A program made the translations under genes and the position numbers. A DNA stretch of 64,000 bases from Candidatus Buchananbacteria bacterium (GTDB taxonomy: Bacteria; Patescibacteriota; Patescibacteriia; 2-01-FULL-39-33), in assembly GCA_903888345.1 (NCBI GenBank), contig CAISTG010000036.1, positions 1,988 through 65,987 of the forward strand. Reading direction: 5' to 3'. The notes beneath the pieces are model-generated. The model did no database searches. It saw only the letters and a list, made by a program, of their open reading frames with translations, and had not been told where the DNA came from. Shown here one piece after another: positions 3,091 through 58,020 of this stretch (its first letter is position 1; each line of letters opens with the position of its first letter).

Positions 3091-6000
3091 ATGCTCTTAA
3101 AATTTAAATCCGGTAGCTTGATCACGTTAAGTCTGGTCGTTTTAGTTGTTTTTTTAATATTAATAAACGGCGCCAAAGCCTGGACGGGGCCAAATAACGA
3201 TCCACCATTAGGTAATGTGGCGGCGCCATTGAGCGTTAATTGCGGTGCCGGTGAAGATCTGTTTTTAGTTTGGGATGGTACTAAATTTGTTTGTAATAAT
3301 GTTTCAACGACCGTCAACTTGATTCAAAATTATTATCAATCGCAGAACATCAATCCATTGAGTGGTGATTTATTGCAGACTTTGGGTAATGGGTCTGATG
3401 CTAGCGCTTTTGATGATGGAGTGATTATTGGTACAACGGCTAAATCCTGGCTAAATGTTGGAGGGGCTTTAACTGCTGGCTGGTTACATGCTAATAGCTC
3501 GGTTGGTACTAGTAGTATCGCTGGAAACCTTAGTGTTGACGGAGCTACTAAGTTAAACACTGTGGCCGCTAGTAGCCTGATGATTGGCGATGCTGACGCT
3601 AATTGGCAGGGGTGGATCATGAATTTAGACGGGGCAAAAATTCCCGTTTGGCAGGGACAATCTAACTTTAATACTGACTTTCCCCGAGGAGCACTGAGTA
3701 ATGGTGCTTACATTTTGGCTAATCAAAATAGTAATTGGGCTAATTTGACTTTCGTTTCTCTTAATAATCTGGGGCAGCAATATGAGGTAGCTTATGACGG
3801 TTCCGTCAATACGCTGTATTTCAGTGGCGAAAGCTTAGTGGTGTCTGAAGGAAGTTTTGTTGCTGGCCAAGCTGAATTTCGTGATAATGTCACTTTAAGT
3901 GGTGGTACTAATGGTAAAATTCAACAATTAAATCTTGGTGGTGGCGGGGAGTATCTTTATTCTGATCGTGATGTAAACAGCTCAAATAAATGGTCAATTA
4001 ATTTAGCTACTGCTGGTGTTGATCGTTTAACGATTAATGAGGGGGGTAATGTTGGTATCGGCACTAATCTACCAACGGCTAGATTAGAGGTGGCTGGTCA
4101 AATAAAAATCACTGGTGGTAATCCTGGCGCCAATAAAGTTCTTACTTCAGATGCTGATGGTTTAGCGTCGTGGAAAGAATGGTTGGTGGGTCAAGGTGGT
4201 AATTTAACACTGGGCACCTCAACCTTGCTTGATGTCTTAAAGAGTGGTGCTGACGCTTCGGCGTTTAGTCAGGCAGTCAACATCGGAGATGTTAGCCATC
4301 CAGCCAATTTTTATGTTAATGGTGGAGAAATTAAGGCGAAATACTTACATGCGACCGATGCGATTGGTGTTAGCAGTTTTGCTGGTAAGGTTGGCGTCGG
4401 CACCATTAATCCTAATAACACTATTGAAGTGGTGGATTTAATTAATTTTGATAATACCAACAGAAATACCAAATTAGGTTATCAAGCAGGGAAGAATATG
4501 ATTGCGGTAGGCGAAAACAATACAATGGTCGGCTATCAAGCGGGCTATTCGAGCGTTTCTGGCTTGAGCAGTTTAGCCAAAAATAATACCGTTATTGGTT
4601 ATCAGGCGTTGTATTCCAATACCACTGGCTATGATAATGCGGCCACTGGCTATCAAGCACTTTATTTAAATACGGATGGTTTCTTCGATACGGCCACCGG
4701 TTATCAGGCTTTGTATTCTAATGTTCATGGAACCTACAATACTGGCGTCGGTAATCAGGCTCTATACTCCAATCGTTACAGTCATTATAATACCGCCTTG
4801 GGAAATCAAGCACTTTATACGACAACTGGTGAGAGAAATGTGGCAATAGGTTATAGTGCCGGTAAATACGAAACTGGCGGTAATAGTTTTTATGTTGATG
4901 ATCGTGATCGCAGTAATACGTCCGGTGATAAGGCCGGTGCTTTGCTCTATGGTACCTTTGCTGATGATGCAGCGAGCCAGGCTTTGGTTGTTAATGCGAA
5001 ATTAACCGTTAACGGAACTATTAAAATTATTGATGGCAATCAAGGTAGTAATAAAGTCTTGACTTCTGATGCTAATGGTCTAGCTTCCTGGCAGAATCCG
5101 GCGACGATTACTTATGCCACCCCGACTTTAGCGCAAATTTTAGCTAAAGGGGCTGACGCGAGCAGTGTTACCTCAACTGTTTCCTTGGGTGGAAATTTAA
5201 GCACCAAAGGTGTGGCAGCTACTGGTGTTGTAGTGACTGGTGGACTGACCACAACCGGCAATATCGGTGTGGGTACCGCCAATCCAGCTTATAATTTAGA
5301 CGTTAATGGTAATCTAAATGTTGCTGCTGGTAAGGCCTATAAGTATAATGGTGCCAATGTTATTTTGGCGGATACCGCTAAGGTTAATTATTTTTTTGCT
5401 GGAGCGGGTAATGCGACCATGACTGGTACTGGCAATCTTGGTAGTGGCGGCAATGCGCTTTTTAGTAATACTGATGGAACCAATAATACAGCCTATGGTT
5501 TAAGCACTTTAGTGGCAAATTCCTCTGGCGCTGATAATACCGCCATTGGCAAGTTAGCCTTATATAACAATCTTGATGGAAATGATAATACCGCCATTGG
5601 TTCGTCAGCGTTGTCTGCTAATACGAGCGGCAAGGAAAATACGGCTTTGGGTAGTGACACTTTAGTTGCGAACACTTCCGGCAGTTACAATATTGCTCTT
5701 GGTTCGCTGGCACTGCAATTTTATACAGGAAATTATAATATCGCTATCGGCTATAAAGCGGCAATTCAGGCCGATGGTTTAACTAATGCCATCGCTATTG
5801 GTAAGAATGCTCGCGTTGATACTTCAAACTCGATGGTTTTAGGTGGTATTGGCAATGACAAAGTTAATGTCGGCATTGGTGTTACTAATCCTACCCAACG
5901 GTTAGTTGTGGACGGAGCGATTAAGTTAGTTGCTACTAGTACCGCTACTGACTCGCAAGGCAATAAGTATTGTAGCGCTGCTAAAGCCGGTTCGATTGTT

Positions 6001-24250: not shown

Positions 24251-25294
24251 ATGAATCAGGCTAGTAATAAAGTAATTTTTATAATCGTCACGCGAAACAG
24301 CAAACGGTTTATGCCGTCGTGCTTAGAATCGATTTTAAATCAGACTAATCGTGACTTTCAAGTGGCGGTCATTGATAATAATTCTGCTGATGGCACCGCT
24401 AGTTTTGTGCGTTCTAATTATCCAATGGTTTCGGTTATTGAGAACAATAAGAATACTGGTTTTGCCAAAGCTAATAATCAAGGCATTAGGTTATTTAAAG
24501 CGCCTTATGTGATTTTATGTAATCCAGATATTGTGTTGACGCCGGACTGGTTAGAAAAAATGCTGGCGGCAGCTGAAGCAGAGGAAAACCGCGGCTATGG
24601 GGTTTTTGGTGGACGCTTGCTCAAATTAAAAATGTTGAATTTAGAAACTGGTGATATGGAAAAAACGGAGGTGGTGGACTCTTGTGGTTTGAAATTGTTA
24701 AAAAATCATCGATTCGTGGAATTAGGGGCAGGCGAAGATCAATCCAATTGGACAACTGATCAACAAGTGTTTGGTCACTCTGGTGCGCTGGTAATGTTTC
24801 GTCGCACCGCTTTAGAAGAAGTAGCGATTCGAGATAAATTTCATCAGTTGGGCGATTATTTGGACGGTAGCTTTTTCTTTTATAAAGAGGATGTTGATTT
24901 GGCTTGGCGGCTAAATGTTTTGGGCTTCAAGTCTCTGCTGGTAGCTGGTGCCACCGCTTATCATTTGCGCACCTTTTCTTTAAGCGAAACAATTAAGACG
25001 AGTGAGGTGATTAGCAATCGTCGGCAGCAGAATTATCTCGCTAAATATTATTCTTATCGTAATCATTTATTGTTGTTGTTGGAAAATTCATTTTTCAGTA
25101 ATTTATTTTTGTATAGCCCACAGATTTTCTGGTTGGAGTTAAAAAAGTTAATTTACGTAATCTTTTTTGAGCCGCGAAATTTACTAGCTTGGGTGGAAGT
25201 AATTAAAATGGTGCCGGAGATTAGAATCAAGCGTCAACAGCTCATGGCGCAAGCTAAGATACTGCCAAGAGATTTTCGTGAATGGCTGGGATAA
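24251..25294 (+). CDS. Family-2 glycosyltransferase.
   Basis: IFIIVTRNS...AVIDNNSADGT N-terminal GT-A fold. DxD-like region present. Confidence 0.75.
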   Translation: MNQASNKVIFIIVTRNSKRFMPSCLESILNQTNRDFQVAVIDNNSADGTASFVRSNYPMVSVIENNKNTGFAKANNQGIRLFKAPYVILCNPDIVLTPDWLEKMLAAAEAEENRGYGVFGGRLLKLKMLNLETGDMEKTEVVDSCGLKLLKNHRFVELGAGEDQSNWTTDQQVFGHSGALVMFRRTALEEVAIRDKFHQLGDYLDGSFFFYKEDVDLAWRLNVLGFKSLLVAGATAYHLRTFSLSETIKTSEVISNRRQQNYLAKYYSYRNHLLLLLENSFFSNLFLYSPQIFWLELKKLIYVIFFEPRNLLAWVEVIKMVPEIRIKRQQLMAQAKILPRDFREWLG

Positions 25295-25326
25295 ATAATT
25301 ACGAATTGAAAATTAAGAATAACAAA

Positions 25327-26100
25327 ATGGAAATTTCAATCATTATTAATAATTATAAAACTCGAGGTCTACTCAAACAATGCCTGAAGGGGATTTATGC
25401 TAATCCGCCAGCAGTGCCTTTTGAAGTTGTTGTTGTTGATAATAATTCTGGTGATGGTTCGGTGGAGTTAGTGCAGGAAATGTTTCCGCGGGTTATGGTT
25501 ATCGCCTCTAAAGAAAATCTTGGCCACCATAAGGGTAATAATCTCGGTATCAAGAATTCGACTGGCAAATATATTTTAATTTTAAATACGGATATTGCGG
25601 TCATGGATGATGCCTTCGATAAGATGTATCGATTTCTCGAAGATCAGCCTCAAGTGGCTTTAATTGGGCCGAAGTTAAAAAATCCTGACGGGAGCATTCA
25701 AATGTCTTGCATGCGTTTTCCGCATTTACTCACGCCGTTTTATCGCCGCACTTTTTTGGGTAAATTTAAATTCGCTCAAGATGAAGTTCGGCAGTACTTG
25801 ATGGAAGACTTTAATCATCTAGAAACGAAACCAGTTGATTGGATCTTGGGTGCCTGCGAAATGGTGCGCCGCAGCGCAATTGATCAAGTCGGCGGCATGG
25901 ACGAAGATTTATTTTTATATTTTGGCGATGTGGCTTGGTGTAAAAAATTCTGGTTGGCGGGATTGCCCGTATATTATTTTGCTGATTGTGAAATTATTCA
26001 TTATCACAAGCGTGAGTCGGCTGAAAGTGGTATTCTATCGAGAATTTTCTGGATTCATATTTTAGATTGGATTCGGTATTTGACCAAGTGTTACAAATAA
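25327..26100 (+). CDS. Family-2 glycosyltransferase.
   Basis: ISIIINNYKT...VVVDNNSGDGS. The ORF-track start at 25282 overlaps the preceding gene; an internal Met at 25327 is the more likely start. Confidence 0.75.
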   Translation: MEISIIINNYKTRGLLKQCLKGIYANPPAVPFEVVVVDNNSGDGSVELVQEMFPRVMVIASKENLGHHKGNNLGIKNSTGKYILILNTDIAVMDDAFDKMYRFLEDQPQVALIGPKLKNPDGSIQMSCMRFPHLLTPFYRRTFLGKFKFAQDEVRQYLMEDFNHLETKPVDWILGACEMVRRSAIDQVGGMDEDLFLYFGDVAWCKKFWLAGLPVYYFADCEIIHYHKRESAESGILSRIFWIHILDWIRYLTKCYK

Positions 26101-26109
26101 TTATTTTGA

Positions 26110-26270
26110 CTTTCCACTTTTAACTTTTAACTAACTATTCTAACCTTTTAACTTTTAACTTTTAACTTTCCACTTTTAACTAACTATTCTAACCTTTTAA
26201 CTTTTAACTTTCCACTTTTAACTTTTAACTAACTATTCTAACCTTTCCACTTTCCACTTTTAACTTTTAA
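26110..26270. repeat. Array of 23 in-register heptanucleotide repeats: CTTTTAA (12 copies), CTTTCCA (5 copies) and CTAACTA+TTCTAAC (3 pairs). The higher-order unit is about 49 bp.
   Basis: Read directly from the sequence. Every unit begins in the same 7-nt phase from about 26110 to 26270, between the stop of the third GT2 gene and the ATG at 26285. Confidence 0.85.
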
Positions 26271-26284
26271 CTATTTATATATCT

Positions 26285-28255
26285 ATGTTCTTTCGCCGTA
26301 AACCTTGGTTGGCCAATTATCTGACCGATCACAATTTAATTAAGCGCCCCACTTCGTGGTGGAAAAAACTCCTACCGGTAGCTATTGTTGTTGGTGTTAT
26401 TTTGTTGATCGTAGTTGTTCCACTTGGCGTGAGTGGTTATCAAATTTATAGTAAATTAGTTAACTTAAATAAATTGGCGGAAGTAATGATTGCTGATGTT
26501 AAGGCAGGGAAGTTAACGGAGGTTAAAAATAATTTGTCAGCGGTTGAGGGCGACTTAATTTATATTAAAGCGAAAGCGAAATTAGCGGGACCAATTTTAC
26601 TTTGGCCGTCTATCGGCAAAACCGCCAAAACGGCGGATCAGATGCTTTCTGCCTCGATTGATTTATTGCAAGGCTATCAGCAGATTTTGGGAGTATTTTC
26701 TGATTTAACGAGCTCCACTGATGAAACACAGGTTATCACTAGTTTTAATTCACCAGAAGGCAAAAAGAAAATGCTCGCTGCCATTGTTAAAAATAGAAGT
26801 ACTTTAGAGGAGGCAAAATTCAAAATTAAAGCGGCCAAGATGGAGTTGGCAGCGATTAATACCAATGACTTGACTGGAATATTGAAAGATAAAGTTATTT
26901 ATGTCAATAATTTACTTTATGAAATTACTGATCAAAGTTATGTCGCCTTGCCTTTGTTTAAATATTTGCCGGAGTTGGCTGGCTATGGAATTGAAAAGAA
27001 TTACTTGATACTATTTCAGAATAATATGGAATTGCGGCCGACGGGCGGCTTTATTGGGAGCTATGGGTTAATCAAAGTTAAGGATGGTGAGATTATTAGT
27101 ATCACGACTGATGATATTTATAATTTAGATAAGTATTCTAAAGATATTTTGAAAGTACCAGCGCCTTGGGCAATGACCGCCTATAATGGCCAGAAATATT
27201 TGTTTTTGCGTGATGCTAATTGGTCGCCCGATTGGCCGACTGATGCCGAGCAAATCTTGTGGCTCTGGGATATCGAACGTGCCAACGCCAAATTACCACC
27301 GCAGAAGTTAGACGGCATTATCGCCATTACACCGGATTTTATAGCCAATTTTTTGGATTTGACGGGGCCAATAACGGTGGACGGAGTTACTTTCCATAAA
27401 AACAATTTTGCCATTGAATTGGAGCAGGCGGTGGAATTTAATTATGTCGATAAGGGCATTCCCATTGAGCAACGCAAAGCGATTATTGGTGATTTGACCA
27501 AAGAAATTATGAAGCGAGTCATGGCCTCTTCGCCAACTCAGCTGCTAGCACTCTGGGGTATTATGAAAGATAATATCGAGAGCAAACAAATTATTGCCTG
27601 GTTGAATGACGCGACCTTACAGGATTATTTCTCGAATGAAAATTGGTCCGGCGAGGTGCGAGCGGCGGACTCTGATTATTTGTATGTCGTTGATGCTAAC
27701 TTGGCGGCATTAAAAACTGATTCAGTTATGAAACGTTCGACTAGCTATGCTTTGTCGGTTGATGCGAATGGGGATTTAACTGCTCGTGCGGAAATAACTT
27801 ATCAACACGCCGGCAAGGCGGTGCAAGCCTTGATTAGTAAGTATCGTACTTATACTAGAGTCTATACGCCAGAAGGCACTTGGTTTACAAAGATTTATAC
27901 TAAAGACAAGACCGGCGTTCAGAATTATGACTTACAAAAGAATGTGGAGCTGAAAAGTGAATTGGGTAAACGTTCGGCAGGAGTATTTTTAGAGGTCCAG
28001 CCGGGAGAAACCAAAACCTTAGTTTTGGAATACAAATTACCGGCTAGTGTCAAGACTTTATACCAAAATGGCCTCTATAAATTGCTCGTCCAGAAGCAAC
28101 CGGGGACGACTGGACATAACCTGGGAATTGATTTAAAATTTGGGCAACTGATAACCGCTTATCATGCTGATAAATTGCCGGTGAGTTTTAAGGGAAAGAA
28201 TCTATTGTTTAACTTGGATTTGAATTCAGATCAAGAAGTAACGGTTAAATTTTAG
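26285..28255 (+). CDS. Large N-terminally membrane-anchored extracytoplasmic protein of 656 aa. DUF4012-like; family assignment is tentative.
   Basis: Single N-terminal transmembrane helix LLPVAIVVGVILLIVVVPLGV. Contains RPTGGFIGSYG, which I recall as characteristic of DUF4012 proteins found in envelope polysaccharide loci. No catalytic motif recognised. Confidence 0.45.
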   Translation: MFFRRKPWLANYLTDHNLIKRPTSWWKKLLPVAIVVGVILLIVVVPLGVSGYQIYSKLVNLNKLAEVMIADVKAGKLTEVKNNLSAVEGDLIYIKAKAKLAGPILLWPSIGKTAKTADQMLSASIDLLQGYQQILGVFSDLTSSTDETQVITSFNSPEGKKKMLAAIVKNRSTLEEAKFKIKAAKMELAAINTNDLTGILKDKVIYVNNLLYEITDQSYVALPLFKYLPELAGYGIEKNYLILFQNNMELRPTGGFIGSYGLIKVKDGEIISITTDDIYNLDKYSKDILKVPAPWAMTAYNGQKYLFLRDANWSPDWPTDAEQILWLWDIERANAKLPPQKLDGIIAITPDFIANFLDLTGPITVDGVTFHKNNFAIELEQAVEFNYVDKGIPIEQRKAIIGDLTKEIMKRVMASSPTQLLALWGIMKDNIESKQIIAWLNDATLQDYFSNENWSGEVRAADSDYLYVVDANLAALKTDSVMKRSTSYALSVDANGDLTARAEITYQHAGKAVQALISKYRTYTRVYTPEGTWFTKIYTKDKTGVQNYDLQKNVELKSELGKRSAGVFLEVQPGETKTLVLEYKLPASVKTLYQNGLYKLLVQKQPGTTGHNLGIDLKFGQLITAYHADKLPVSFKGKNLLFNLDLNSDQEVTVKF

Positions 28256-29285: not shown

Positions 29286-29378
29286 TTAATAGTAATTTAA
29301 AATATTAAAAAAGCTCCGCGCTGGGTTTGGACCAGGGTGGAGCTTTAAAGAACGGTTTGGGTTGTTGGCGGGGCCGAG

Positions 29379-29588
29379 TTATTCGGCTGCCGGGCGGTAG
29401 ACGACAACGCGCTTTATGTACGGATTGGAGGTTTCATGGACCATGTCTGTGGTGCGGATAATCTCTTCCGCTCCCAGTCTGTTGGTGTCTTGGTCCAGAA
29501 ACTGATATACAGTTTCGATGCTTCTCTGGAAGAGTGAGACCACAAATGTTTTGACGAGTGGCGGCTGTTTCTGTGTTGTGTCTGACAT
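29379..29588 (-). CDS. Small hypothetical protein of 69 aa with a strong Shine-Dalgarno site (cassette a).
   Basis: AAAGGAG lies 8 nt upstream of the ATG. No homology recognised. Locally higher GC content. Confidence 0.5.
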   Translation of the reverse strand: MSDTTQKQPPLVKTFVVSLFQRSIETVYQFLDQDTNRLGAEEIIRTTDMVHETSNPYIKRVVVYRPAAE

Positions 29589-29637
29589 GGATCATACTCC
29601 TTTGTTGGTTGTGATGGTTTTTTGATCGATATTACGC

Positions 29638-29925
29638 TTACGATTTCTTGCCAGGAGTCAGTACCAGAATGAACCCCGGGTCTGCTCCACTGTACCAGTG
29701 GATGCGTAAAGCGAGACCTCCGTAATAGGCATCGTAGAGTTCCTGCATGTCTTCGAGTGACTCGCAGACAAACAGTCGTTCTCCCAGTCCTTGGTCGTAG
29801 CCGCAGATGACCCGATGATCTTTTGATGGTAGCGAAGGCATTTTTGTCGGCCGCCCGCTAATGTCGCAGATTCGCCTCATGTCATCGGCTCCCGCAACGT
29901 TAGTCTTTTTTCCAAGCTCGATCAT
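29638..29925 (-). CDS. Small hypothetical protein of 95 aa with a strong Shine-Dalgarno site (cassette a).
   Basis: AAAGGAG lies 9 nt upstream of the ATG. A perfect consensus promoter lies about 70 nt upstream on the minus strand. Confidence 0.55.
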   Translation of the reverse strand: MIELGKKTNVAGADDMRRICDISGRPTKMPSLPSKDHRVICGYDQGLGERLFVCESLEDMQELYDAYYGGLALRIHWYSGADPGFILVLTPGKKS

Positions 29926-29996
29926 GTTAAGGTGCTCCTTTTCGATGTTGATTTGACCACGAATCCCGTGGCGGAATTTACTAAACAGGTAATATT

Positions 29997-30029
29997 AGAT
30001 TATATTATATATACTATAATATGTCAATA
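29997..30029 (-). promoter_or_regulatory. Consensus sigma70 promoter TTGACA-N17-TATAAT on the minus strand, driving cassette a (approximate coordinates).
   Basis: Minus-strand read is ttgacatattatagtatatataatataat, located about 30 bp upstream of and divergent from the GT4 gene start. Confidence 0.5.
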
Positions 30030-30073
30030 GCAGTTATTATTAAAAATAATTATTTTTGCTAAATTTAGATAAT

Positions 30074-49584: not shown

Positions 49585-51663
<2,079 letters not shown>

Positions 51664-51912
51664 TTACTAATTACGAATTAAAAATTTAATTATTTTGCTA
51701 AATTTAAACATATTATTATAATAATATCTGTCGGTCCGCCACGGCGGATTCCGACAGTAAGTGTTTAAATTAAGACTTTTCCACAACCTAATTTTAGCAT
51801 ATTTTTGCATTTTCAACAAGCTACTTGTTGCTTGCTTTTACTTCTTAAATATCGTAAGATTTAAGTGTTTTAATCGTACATTTATTCATACCGAATAGGA
51901 GGATAATATCTT

Positions 51913-57300: not shown

Positions 57301-58020
57301 ATGGCCTTACCAGCAAAAGTAAAAAAATATCTTGACGCGACTGGCGTAGATTATGAAGCTTTGGTGCACAAAACGGTTTATACCGCCTATGATGCTGCTC
57401 AAACATTAAAAAAGGAATTAAAAGAAATCGCCAAGACCATTTTGATCGAGGCTGACAAAACTCATGTCTTATTGGTGCTACCGGCAGATAAGAAGATCGA
57501 TATGGAAAAACTCAAGAAAGCTTTGGGTGCTAAAAAGATTTCTATTCCTAGTGAAAAGGTGATGATCAAGGTCTTAAAAATTCAGCCAGGCACTTTATCG
57601 TCATTTGGTAAATTACACAATTTAGAAGTTGTCGTTGATAAAGCAATGTTGAATGCTCAGAAAATGGTAGTTTCAACCGGTAGTTTTACTGATTCAGTTT
57701 TTATGAAGGTTAAAGATTTTATTCAATCACAAGAGGCCCACTTGGCAAATGTCGCCATGGCTGGTGGTTATAAGATCCCGAAGCAAATGAAGAAAACCAT
57801 GAAGAAAGTTAAGAAACAAGTATCAGCAAAAAAGGATAAAATCACGAAAGTCAAAGTGCCTAAAGCGATCAAGAAACTAGTTAAGCCAGTTAAGAAGGCA
57901 ATTAAGAAAGCCGTTACTAAGCCAGTAGCTAAGAAAAAAGTTGTTAAGAAAGTAGCAAAGAAGGCTACTAAGAAAGTGGTTAAGAAGGTAGCTAAAAAAG
58001 TTGCTAAGAAGAAAAAATAA
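57301..58020 (+). CDS. YbaK/ProX-type aminoacyl-tRNA trans-editing deacylase domain fused to a Lys/Ala-rich histone-H1-like tail.
   Basis: Residues 1-165 align block by block with E. coli YbaK: KTILIEADKTHVLLVLPADKKIDMEKLKKALGAKKI against [39 protein letters not shown]. Residues 166-239 are KK(V/A)xKK repeats. Confidence 0.65.
   Translation: MALPAKVKKYLDATGVDYEALVHKTVYTAYDAAQTLKKELKEIAKTILIEADKTHVLLVLPADKKIDMEKLKKALGAKKISIPSEKVMIKVLKIQPGTLSSFGKLHNLEVVVDKAMLNAQKMVVSTGSFTDSVFMKVKDFIQSQEAHLANVAMAGGYKIPKQMKKTMKKVKKQVSAKKDKITKVKVPKAIKKLVKPVKKAIKKAVTKPVAKKKVVKKVAKKATKKVVKKVAKKVAKKKK

Follow-up and report, generated by a model that had tools for sequence, protein, structure and literature searches.

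A heptanucleotide direct-repeat array in the spacer before a DUF4012 gene of the Patescibacteria and its relation to start-proximal heptamer arrays

Introduction

Direct repeats with a period of seven nucleotides have been described upstream of genes in several groups of bacteria. The subject of this work is a 23-unit heptanucleotide array that lies between a GT2 glycosyltransferase gene and a DUF4012 gene in a 64-kb stretch of DNA (contig CAISTG010000036.1; the whole stretch of 64,000 nucleotides is referred to here as the window). The host was placed from its homologs in the Patescibacteria (candidate phyla radiation, CPR), near Buchananbacteria. In many bacteria the long simple repeats are dominated by heptanucleotide repeats, which were noticed in cyanobacteria decades ago; the cyanobacterial short tandemly repeated repetitive (STRR) elements are heptamer repeats. 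Two other systems are relevant to the comparison, the omega repressor of pSM19035, which binds WATCACW heptads, and the epsilon translational enhancer, which originates from gene 10 of bacteriophage T7.

In one Beggiatoaceae genome 169 sets of TAACTGA heptamers have been found, mostly intergenic, in forward orientation and a few nucleotides from a start codon (MacGregor, 2015; PMC4679880). These repeats replace Shine-Dalgarno (SD) sites, frequently have related heptamers interspersed among them and were predicted to lack structure (PMC4679880). Repeats of the TAACTGA type are also present in Cyanobacteria and Bacteroidetes, in up to 43 copies, and close relatives are without them (PMC4679880). 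A translational role was proposed for these repeats, with S1, cold-shock proteins (Csp) and CsrA as candidate binders, and B. subtilis CspB was described as binding heptamer repeats with one protein per heptamer and a preference for TTCTTTT (PMC4679880). As far as the account given in the same paper goes, heptanucleotides were found to be the most abundant long simple repeats and polymerase slippage was proposed as their source (Mrazek, 2007, via PMC4679880).

Heptamer arrays have also been described in three other systems. In H. influenzae the (ATCTTTC)n tract in the 5' untranslated region (5'-UTR) of hmw1A and hmw2A acts as a rheostat, expression being inversely proportional to tract length, and the tract pairs with a G-rich arm in a long hairpin that is cleaved by RNase III (PMC12721329). 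In Nostoc PCC 7120, TTTTGAA heptamers are found near start codons or promoters, and when they were deleted reporter activity changed, as did the response to NtcA and LexA (bioRxiv 10.1101/2022.06.06.494920). The TTTTGAT heptads of V. cholerae ctxAB act as binding sites in double-stranded DNA, lying upstream of the promoter, where they recruit regulators, and their number varies between strains (bioRxiv 10.1101/2021.05.14.444153). A single-copy element is also of interest here, the T7 gene 10 'epsilon' sequence TTAACTTTA, which has been used as a translational enhancer (PMC10011478).

Judged on its sequence, the 184-bp spacer between the GT2 stop codon and the DUF4012 ATG in the window is a heptanucleotide direct-repeat leader. 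The interpretation favoured here, to which we would give an even chance of being correct, is that the array is a slippage-born expansion of the leader which is transcribed as an unstructured RNA permitting SD-independent initiation, with its length tuning expression.

Structure of the repeat array

When parsed in steps of seven, the forward strand between 26110 and 26270 resolves into 23 consecutive heptamers without a register shift. Twelve of these are CTTTTAA, five CTTTCCA, three CTAACTA and three TTCTAAC, which in rotated form read TAACTTT, CCACTTT, TAACTAT and TAACCTT. The CTAACTA-TTCTAAC pairs are found at 26131, 26180 and 26229, a spacing of exactly 49 bp. Tandem Repeats Finder (TRF), whose array call begins at 26104, called both periods, with 24.7 copies and a score of 118 for period 7 and 3.5 copies, 87% matches, 0% indels and a score of 262 for period 49. 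The 49-bp blocks vary solely in the placement of the CCA variant and in the degenerate final unit of block three. Perfect direct repeats of 25-39 nt are present inside the array at spacings of 49 and 98 bp, as are runs of two to three identical units; the longest run of identical units is three (26145-26165) and the four unit types are interspersed. An earlier note on this DNA had described the 23 units, their counts, an order of about 49 bp and a gap of 14 bp before the ATG, and all of this was confirmed by the step-7 parse and TRF.

The array register extends beyond the core. The GT2 stop codon (TAA, 26098-26100) lies 2 nt ahead of the first heptamer register, and the ATG at 26285, 14 nt past the last good unit, is itself in register with the array (26110 + 25x7). 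Degenerate units occupy both flanks (Table 1), and the entire spacer, from 2 nt after the GT2 stop to the ATG, can therefore be read as 26 heptamer registers. Identity at a lag of 7 over 161 nt was 0.646; 200 local shuffles averaged 0.407 and did not exceed 0.478. Other lag-7 periodicity within the window was confined to one place, at 51646-51695. Of the copies of each unit on the forward strand of the window, the array holds 12 of 19 for CTTTTAA and five of seven for CTTTCCA.

Insertion of the array as a mobile element was rejected. There are no terminal repeats and no target duplication, and the edges grade into degenerate units, for which reason expansion in situ is preferred. A scan of metagenomes for the 21-mer CTTTTAACTAACTATTCTAAC gave a single match, on an unrelated contig without the array (L004, 1270-1320), where it sits directly after a terminator-like hairpin (GATCAGT...ACTGATC); this match is probably due to chance. 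For a comparison between strains, contigs encoding the DUF4012 and GT2 proteins of the window were sought and none is on record, the identical protein (P0001) coming from a single contig.

Composition and expression signals of the spacer

The spacer is almost free of G on the sense strand (T 90, A 50, C 41 and G 1 in 182 nt). The GC skew of the array is -0.84 and that of the flanking coding sequence is positive; the skew is thus opposite to that of the neighbouring genes and the composition is therefore not a product of local mutational skew. As RNA or as single-stranded DNA the array is predicted to be without structure, with a centroid of 0 kcal/mol over 220 nt and a minimum free energy of -3.6 compared with a shuffle mean of -5.9. 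A fold of the 701-nt context gave a single 9-bp helix, to the GT2 coding region (z = +1.35), and neither the 220-nt nor the 701-nt fold contained an hmw-like hairpin with flanking sequence. The sense strand carries no start codons and many stop codons, and since these stops are present in all frames the spacer is taken to be untranslated.

None of the SD-like 4-mers GGAG, GAGG, AGGA and AAGG is present in the 30 nt upstream of the DUF4012 gene. This is the usual state in the window: of its 57 genes about 7 carry an SD-like 4-mer no more than 20 nt from the start, and about 88% are without one. The 8-mer TTAACTTT is found eight times in the array. When the 64 kb of the window were searched for the RNP1 and RNP2 motifs, no gene with a cold-shock domain was found. 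No match to Rfam 15 at the gathering threshold and no tRNA gene was found anywhere in the 64 kb.

A weak sigma-70-like sequence just before the array (Table 1) is the sole forward-strand site of this kind upstream of the DUF4012 gene. It differs in the orthologs and would, as weak evidence, place a transcription start near the first unit of the array. The promoter scan found no forward-strand site between the array and the ATG, which speaks against the proposal in the earlier note that changes in unit number vary expression through promoter spacing. No terminator-like site was found in the spacer at the scan threshold. On the minus strand each 49-bp block contains a -10-like TAGAAT, three sites that are non-independent copies. 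An antisense-promoter reading was set aside, the minus-strand hits numbering 7 compared with 4.7 +/- 2.5 expected by chance. Helical phasing or curvature was likewise rejected, by reasoning alone. T-tracts repeated each 7 bp are rotated by about 240 degrees and a planar bend is therefore not expected, in agreement with the earlier statement that a 7-bp period is not helical phasing.

Orthologous operons

The gene order GT2-GT2-GT2-DUF4012-mreB-...-GT4-tRNA synthetase is conserved among the relatives of the window operon. The N-terminus MFFRRKPW and the ATG are kept in the orthologs, which indicates that the DUF4012 start codon has been called correctly. The spacer between GT2 and DUF4012 is 4 bp in L126, 8 bp in L128/L129, 19 bp at the P0004 locus (where it follows an extra gene), 61 bp in L125, 80 bp in L127, 91 bp in L001 (with a hairpin) and 169 bp in L131 (with a long inverted-repeat insert), and the array of the window is absent from all seven of these orthologous spacers (4-169 bp). 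The L131 insert, at 2840-2980, consists of the inverted repeat TTATTAATTGAGTTTTTATTTTTGA ... TCAAAAATAAAAACTCAATTAATAG and looks like a hairpin-forming or miniature inverted-repeat transposable element (MITE)-like insert; the same locus has a TATAAT box 13 nt before the DUF4012 ATG.

The closest relative, L001/L002, shows 85% protein identity and has in common with the window the last 8 nt before the ATG, ATATATCT. In L001 a period-7 array of TTAAAAA (3.6 copies, 3968-3993) ends 7 nt before the DUF4012 ATG. The GT2-DUF4012 spacer of L127 holds a G-free run of CTTTATAA-like 8-mers, and in the same locus AAAGTTA-type units fill the GT2-GT2 spacer and adjoin the start codon (2107-2145). L126 (2788-2895 and 4386-4458) has palindromic heptamer arms before mreB and inverted 8-mer arrays before GT4. 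The unit sequences of these operon-spacer arrays differ among the relatives. Arrays thus recur in the intercistronic leaders of the clade, and the particular array of the window is missing from its relatives, which suggests that it is a lineage-specific expansion.

Related arrays in other genomes

A scan for (CTTTTAA)3 with one genome per GTDB species, in which taxa were counted from record titles, gave at least 120 loci. These comprise at least 62 in Bacteroidota, at least 17 in Cyanobacteria, at least eight each in Ignavibacteria and Gammaproteobacteria, at least seven in Patescibacteria, at least four in Acidobacteriota, at least three in Planctomycetota and at least 11 in others, with one Firmicute among the matches listed, and the phylum proportions taken from these matches may be biased and are not a census. 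The window array fits a class of heptamer repeats found in bacteria with little use of SD sites, namely Beggiatoaceae, Cyanobacteria and Bacteroidota and, here, Patescibacteria also.

For 127 arrays, set to the CTTTTAA strand, long open reading frames (ORFs) were called mechanically. Among the matches listed, 60 arrays have a same-strand ORF on their 3' side; 36 of the 60 end within 30 nt of the ORF start, the full set of 60 has a median distance of 12 nt, and 32 arrays end no more than 15 nt from a start. In the antisense arrangement, 45 arrays have an opposite-strand ORF on the 5' side, and 7 of these are no more than 30 nt from its start (36 versus 7, binomial p = 9e-6). The called starts are credible because the ORFs are open up to the array and because Pfam domains begin at the called N-termini. 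This was seen in ten tested cases, with Epimerase beginning from residue 2 and His_biosynth and L10 from residue 5, and the called N-terminus of GlmS starts with MCGIVGY. The genes that follow start-adjacent arrays are housekeeping genes: hisS, atpA and rplJ in Patescibacteria and, in other phyla, nuoE, serA, hisF, glmS, gatC and genes for a GldF-like permease and an epimerase. Arrays recur before orthologs in different species, in three genomes each for nuoE and the GldF-like ABC permease and in two each for serA and the epimerase.

In 22 additional start-adjacent heptamer arrays, found independently, the sense strand has less G than C in 18 cases and more in three (p = 0.0015). Period 7 is also prominent in the surroundings of the arrays: 873 kb around them (L005-L124) hold 87 further period-7 arrays of at least four units and, for each other period from 4 to 12, between none and seven. 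In five loci from Bacteroidota a TAnnTTTG -7 promoter box follows closely on the end of the array. In 14 of 117 arrays the T-rich arm is preceded, at no more than 150 nt, by an inverted (TTAAAAG)n partner, and in none of the 117 is there a partner on the 3' side. The loci with such polar palindromes include L007, L028, L031, L046 and L085. Some of them, L085 for example, resemble terminator hairpins with A- and T-rich flanks, which suggests an origin of part of the class in the A- and T-tracts of terminators. The window array has no such partner arm, since just 2 nt separate it from the GT2 stop codon. The observation that arrays are never found inside genes was dropped as evidence, being trivial since CTTTTAA repeats carry stops in all six frames.

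Operon context and other features of the window

The earlier note had placed a DUF4012-like gene downstream of the array and three glycosyltransferase genes upstream of it, and both assignments hold, the former with the Pfam match in Table 1 and the latter as three GT2 genes. mreB follows 28 nt downstream of the DUF4012 gene, and all of these genes are on the forward strand. The ten neighbour genes encode a ligase, a pilin-like protein, three GT2 proteins, the DUF4012 protein, MreB, a GT4 protein, a class I tRNA synthetase and an unassigned ORF, and a Pfam search found no DNA-binding domain among them.

Table 1. Positions of the repeat array, its subdivisions and associated features in the window
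Feature	Position	Strand	Evidence or remarks
Three 49-bp higher-order blocks	26131..26277	+	Each consists of CTAACTATTCTAAC and five CTTTTAA or CTTTCCA units
Degenerate 5' edge unit ATTTTGA	26103..26109	+	In array register
Two degenerate 3' units, CTATTTA TATATCT, adjoining the ATG	26271..26284	+	Sequence
G-free sense-strand run, 178 nt	26109..26286	+	Next longest in window 43 nt
Weak sigma-70-like site TTGACC-16-TATTTT	26080..26107	+	Promoter scan, 9/12 matches
Third GT2 glycosyltransferase gene of the operon	25282..26100	+	Pfam Glycos_transf_2, E = 1.1e-21; synteny with L001 and L125-L131
DUF4012 gene, 656 aa, N-terminal membrane helix	26285..28255	+	Pfam, E = 3.9e-28
Second short heptamer array, about 3.7 units of CGTAATT/AGTAATT	51655..51680	-	TRF, lag scan

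A second short heptamer array ends 9 nt before the start codon of gyrB at 51645 (Pfam DNA_gyraseB). The main array and the gyrB array are the only 7-nt-periodic regions of the window, and both adjoin a start codon.

Several other features were observed. The gap between mreB and GT4 (29286-30055, 770 bp) contains a GC-richer island with two minus-strand ORFs of 69 and 95 aa whose strong SD sites are unusual for this genome. A Pfam search gave no match for either ORF, and the island may be a foreign insertion; in the relatives other small ORFs are present at the mreB-GT4 gap position. The motif ATTATTTTGCTAAATTTA is common to 51689-51706 and 30050-30067, upstream of two genes, and is exact in one case and has 3 mismatches in the other, the number of matches at 3 mismatches being not clearly above chance. 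At 51695-51722 it forms a good promoter, TTGCTA-16-TATAAT, and the 190-nt leader downstream of this promoter contains a GC-rich hairpin. At 57937-58010 an in-frame tandem repeat of 12/24/36 nt, AAAGTTGCTAAG-like and rich in lysine and alanine codons, forms the C-terminal tail of an aminoacyl-tRNA editing domain protein (57301-58020).

Origin and possible function of the array

It is proposed that the array arose as a lineage-specific expansion of the short, G-poor and SD-less leader that the DUF4012 gene already possessed, and that this expansion proceeded by replication slippage of 7 bp together with unequal exchange of 49-bp blocks. An origin in place by slippage and exchange is indicated by the edges, which grade into degenerate units, and by the blocks, which differ by variant placement alone. 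Transcription of the array would be part of that of the envelope operon or would begin at the weak promoter at 26080-26107. The resulting leader RNA, free of G and of structure, would keep the initiation region single-stranded, would uncouple translation of DUF4012 from that of the upstream cistron and may provide a landing pad for the 30S subunit with S1, or for oligonucleotide/oligosaccharide-binding (OB)-fold proteins such as cold-shock proteins, one per heptamer. A 7-nt footprint of S1- or Csp-like proteins would explain the period of the array. Expression would then be tuned and not switched as units are gained or lost in steps of 7, 49 or 98 bp. A more general proposal, that heptamer arrays are a modular substitute for the SD site across phyla and that the 7-nt period is the footprint of one OB-fold domain (a cold-shock or S1 domain), is unlikely on the present evidence.

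A number of points weigh against the leader interpretation. The functional step, namely transcription, protein binding and an effect on expression, is one that we infer. The array is missing from the closest relatives and so is not needed for expression of DUF4012. The orientation of related arrays has exceptions, in L127, where purine-rich AAAGTTA-type units are found at a start, and in L001, where the units are A-rich TTAAAAA. Among the matches listed, 56 arrays have a gene of the opposite strand on their 3' side and 37 of these adjoin its stop codon, and adjacency to start codons and to stop codons is about equally frequent among the arrays of the class. The 14 of 117 arrays that form the T-rich arm of terminator-like hairpins make the class heterogeneous, and part of the start-adjacent bias may stem from an origin in terminator T-tracts or from ordinary leader composition. 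To these are added the possible bias in the phylum proportions and the derivation of the array copy number from a short-read metagenome assembly, by which it may be inexact.

Other explanations have to be considered. The array could be a recent, neutral expansion by slippage and unequal exchange in a dispensable spacer, tolerated as harmless and without effect on expression, an account that is possible although we think it rather unlikely. It agrees with the lack of the array from seven orthologous spacers, some merely 4-8 bp long, and with the fast turnover of the operon spacers, which carry unrelated inserts such as the hairpins of L001 and the inverted repeat of L131. Certain genomes also generate heptamer arrays at a very high rate regardless of the unit (87 versus 0-7 arrays), a rate which fits the slippage proposal of Mrazek (2007), as represented in PMC4679880. 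However, the start-adjacent biases (36 versus 7; G less than C in 18 versus 3) show at least purifying selection, arrays persist before orthologous genes in different species (nuoE, GldF-like, serA, epimerase) and the G-free composition of the window array opposes the local strand skew. A rheostat or phase-variation system of the hmw type, in which a hypermutable tract would set the level of DUF4012 (and mreB) through a copy number that differs from cell to cell, seems quite improbable. The units are heterogeneous with no more than three identical in a row, the required hairpin with a G-rich arm has no partner here, arrays of the class precede essential housekeeping genes (in this window gyrB too), and mreB, 28 nt downstream in the same operon, would co-vary. 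These points are set against the precedent of (ATCTTTC)n, which is G-free on the sense strand, lies in a 5'-UTR and is length-dependent in its effect (PMC12721329), against the 25-39-nt perfect repeats at 49/98 bp and the identical runs of 2-3 units, which are substrates for slippage, and against the nature of the downstream product, a membrane-anchored envelope protein encoded in a glycosyltransferase operon. The earlier note had read the array as a slippage-prone tract giving phase-variable expression. The kind of tract, slippage-derived, is upheld, with spacers of 4-184 bp among relatives and the hmw precedent (PMC12721329) in its favour; the switch is not, given the short runs of identical units, the missing hairpin arm and the presence of the class before atpA, rplJ, hisS, nuoE, glmS, hisF and gatC. 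With no more than three identical units in a row, slippage by 7 bp is expected to be far less frequent than in classic contingency tracts, and gain or loss of a unit leaves about 35 nt beside the ATG unaltered. Phase variation of the array is only weakly supported, and its annotation as a phase-variation switch would not be justified.

Two further accounts place the function in the DNA itself or in termination of transcription. Iterated sites for a regulator or nucleoid protein, as the earlier note had suggested as an alternative, or an A/T-rich upstream promoter element appear highly improbable, as strand polarity across phyla argues for a constraint at the level of RNA or composition. Operators with 7-bp repeats have a precedent in the WATCACW heptads bound by omega. 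A second precedent is provided by TTTTGAT of ctxAB (bioRxiv 10.1101/2021.05.14.444153). The five Bacteroidota arrays that end just before a TAnnTTTG -7 box are consistent with a DNA-level element, as are the TTAAAAG/CTTTTAA-type units found in both orientations in relatives of the operon and the minus-strand TAGAAT of each 49-bp block. Most arrays of the class nonetheless adjoin the ATG and leave no room for a promoter (32 end within 15 nt of a start), their strand polarity relative to genes is strong, the same heptamer is found across unrelated phyla without a shared regulator, and no regulator gene adjoins the window array. Successive sites at a 7-bp spacing would moreover fall on different faces of the helix, and the minus-strand promoter-like hits are within chance. 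The remaining account, that the 178-nt G-free, unstructured RNA acts as a Rho-loading attenuator resembling a Rho utilisation (rut) site and lowers transcription into DUF4012-mreB, is hardly credible. Sites of the rut type have more C than G, are unstructured and extend over at least 70-80 nt. The composition of the spacer (C 41 and G 1 in 182 nt) and its lack of structure match this signature, and the spacer is untranslated, with stops in all frames; but YC dinucleotides are sparse in the CTTTTAA units, mreB downstream is presumably needed and Cyanobacteria, which are rich in arrays, to our knowledge lack Rho.

The survey shows three regularities: a near-exclusive period of 7, a bias of start-adjacent arrays towards the sense strand together with their low G content, and association with housekeeping genes in SD-poor phyla. 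Among the matches listed, arrays are almost missing from the AT-rich, SD-rich Firmicutes. The window extends the class to Patescibacteria, which have minimal genomes with little junk space and genes that mostly lack SD sites. If the arrays do substitute for SD sites, the leader would be coated or kept open as a landing site for the 30S subunit, with the number of units setting the rate of translation. On this reading the 23 units would give an envelope protein an initiation platform that is unusually strong or tunable, and the same principle would be at work in Bacteroidota, in Cyanobacteria and in the reduced genomes of Patescibacteria. If SD-independent initiation is indeed what the arrays permit, cultivable Flavobacteria with (CTTTTAA)n before nuoE, serA or hisF would offer a direct experimental system.

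Comparison with known systems

Of the heptamer systems described, ctxAB and omega share with the window contiguous 7-bp repeats upstream of a gene, and TTTTGAT resembles TTTTAAC. The units of the window do not match the ctxAB TTTTGAT or omega WATCACW consensus, and whereas those heptads lie upstream of the -35 element and are bound as double-stranded DNA by known proteins, the window array reaches the start codon and has a strand polarity of the RNA type. The T7 epsilon element can be compared by analogy through the 8-mer TTAACTTT, as an A/U-rich unstructured element just upstream of the initiation region, but epsilon is present once and in E. coli acts in combination with an SD site. The hmw tracts, which are known to be transcribed, resemble the window array in being heptamer arrays of tens of units with a pyrimidine-rich, G-free sense strand, and in lying upstream of a gene for a large surface protein that is linked to glycosyltransferases. 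In hmw, however, the units are identical and pair with a G-rich arm and their copy number varies in the population, whereas the units of the window are mixed and have no pairing arm.

The Nostoc TTTTGAA repeats have in common with the window the 7-nt period, the intergenic position near starts and T-rich units (TTTTGAA as compared with TTTTAAC), but belong to another phylum and to a genome with many arrays. The long simple sequence repeats with 5-11-nt units surveyed by Mrazek (2007) show the same dominance of heptanucleotides and the same proposed origin in slippage; as far as that survey is represented in PMC4679880, its category is statistical and not positional or functional.

The likeness is closest to the TAACTGA type. 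Both consist of direct repeats of 7 nt, split by related 7-mers, in forward orientation and near a start codon without an SD site, with RNA that is predicted to be unstructured. Both have units with a TAAC core, close relatives that lack the array, and downstream genes that are unrelated to each other and in some cases essential. They differ in that the units of the window are TAACTTT, CCACTTT, TAACTAT and TAACCTT and not TAACTGA, in the number of units (23-26 here and 2-6 in the type genome), in the clear 49-bp order seen here and in the host, Patescibacteria being absent from PMC4679880. From its sequence, the window array is therefore a member of the broader start-proximal heptamer class and not of the TAACTGA set itself. 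It is a long, higher-order example of a class of element that has already been described, and not a new type of element.

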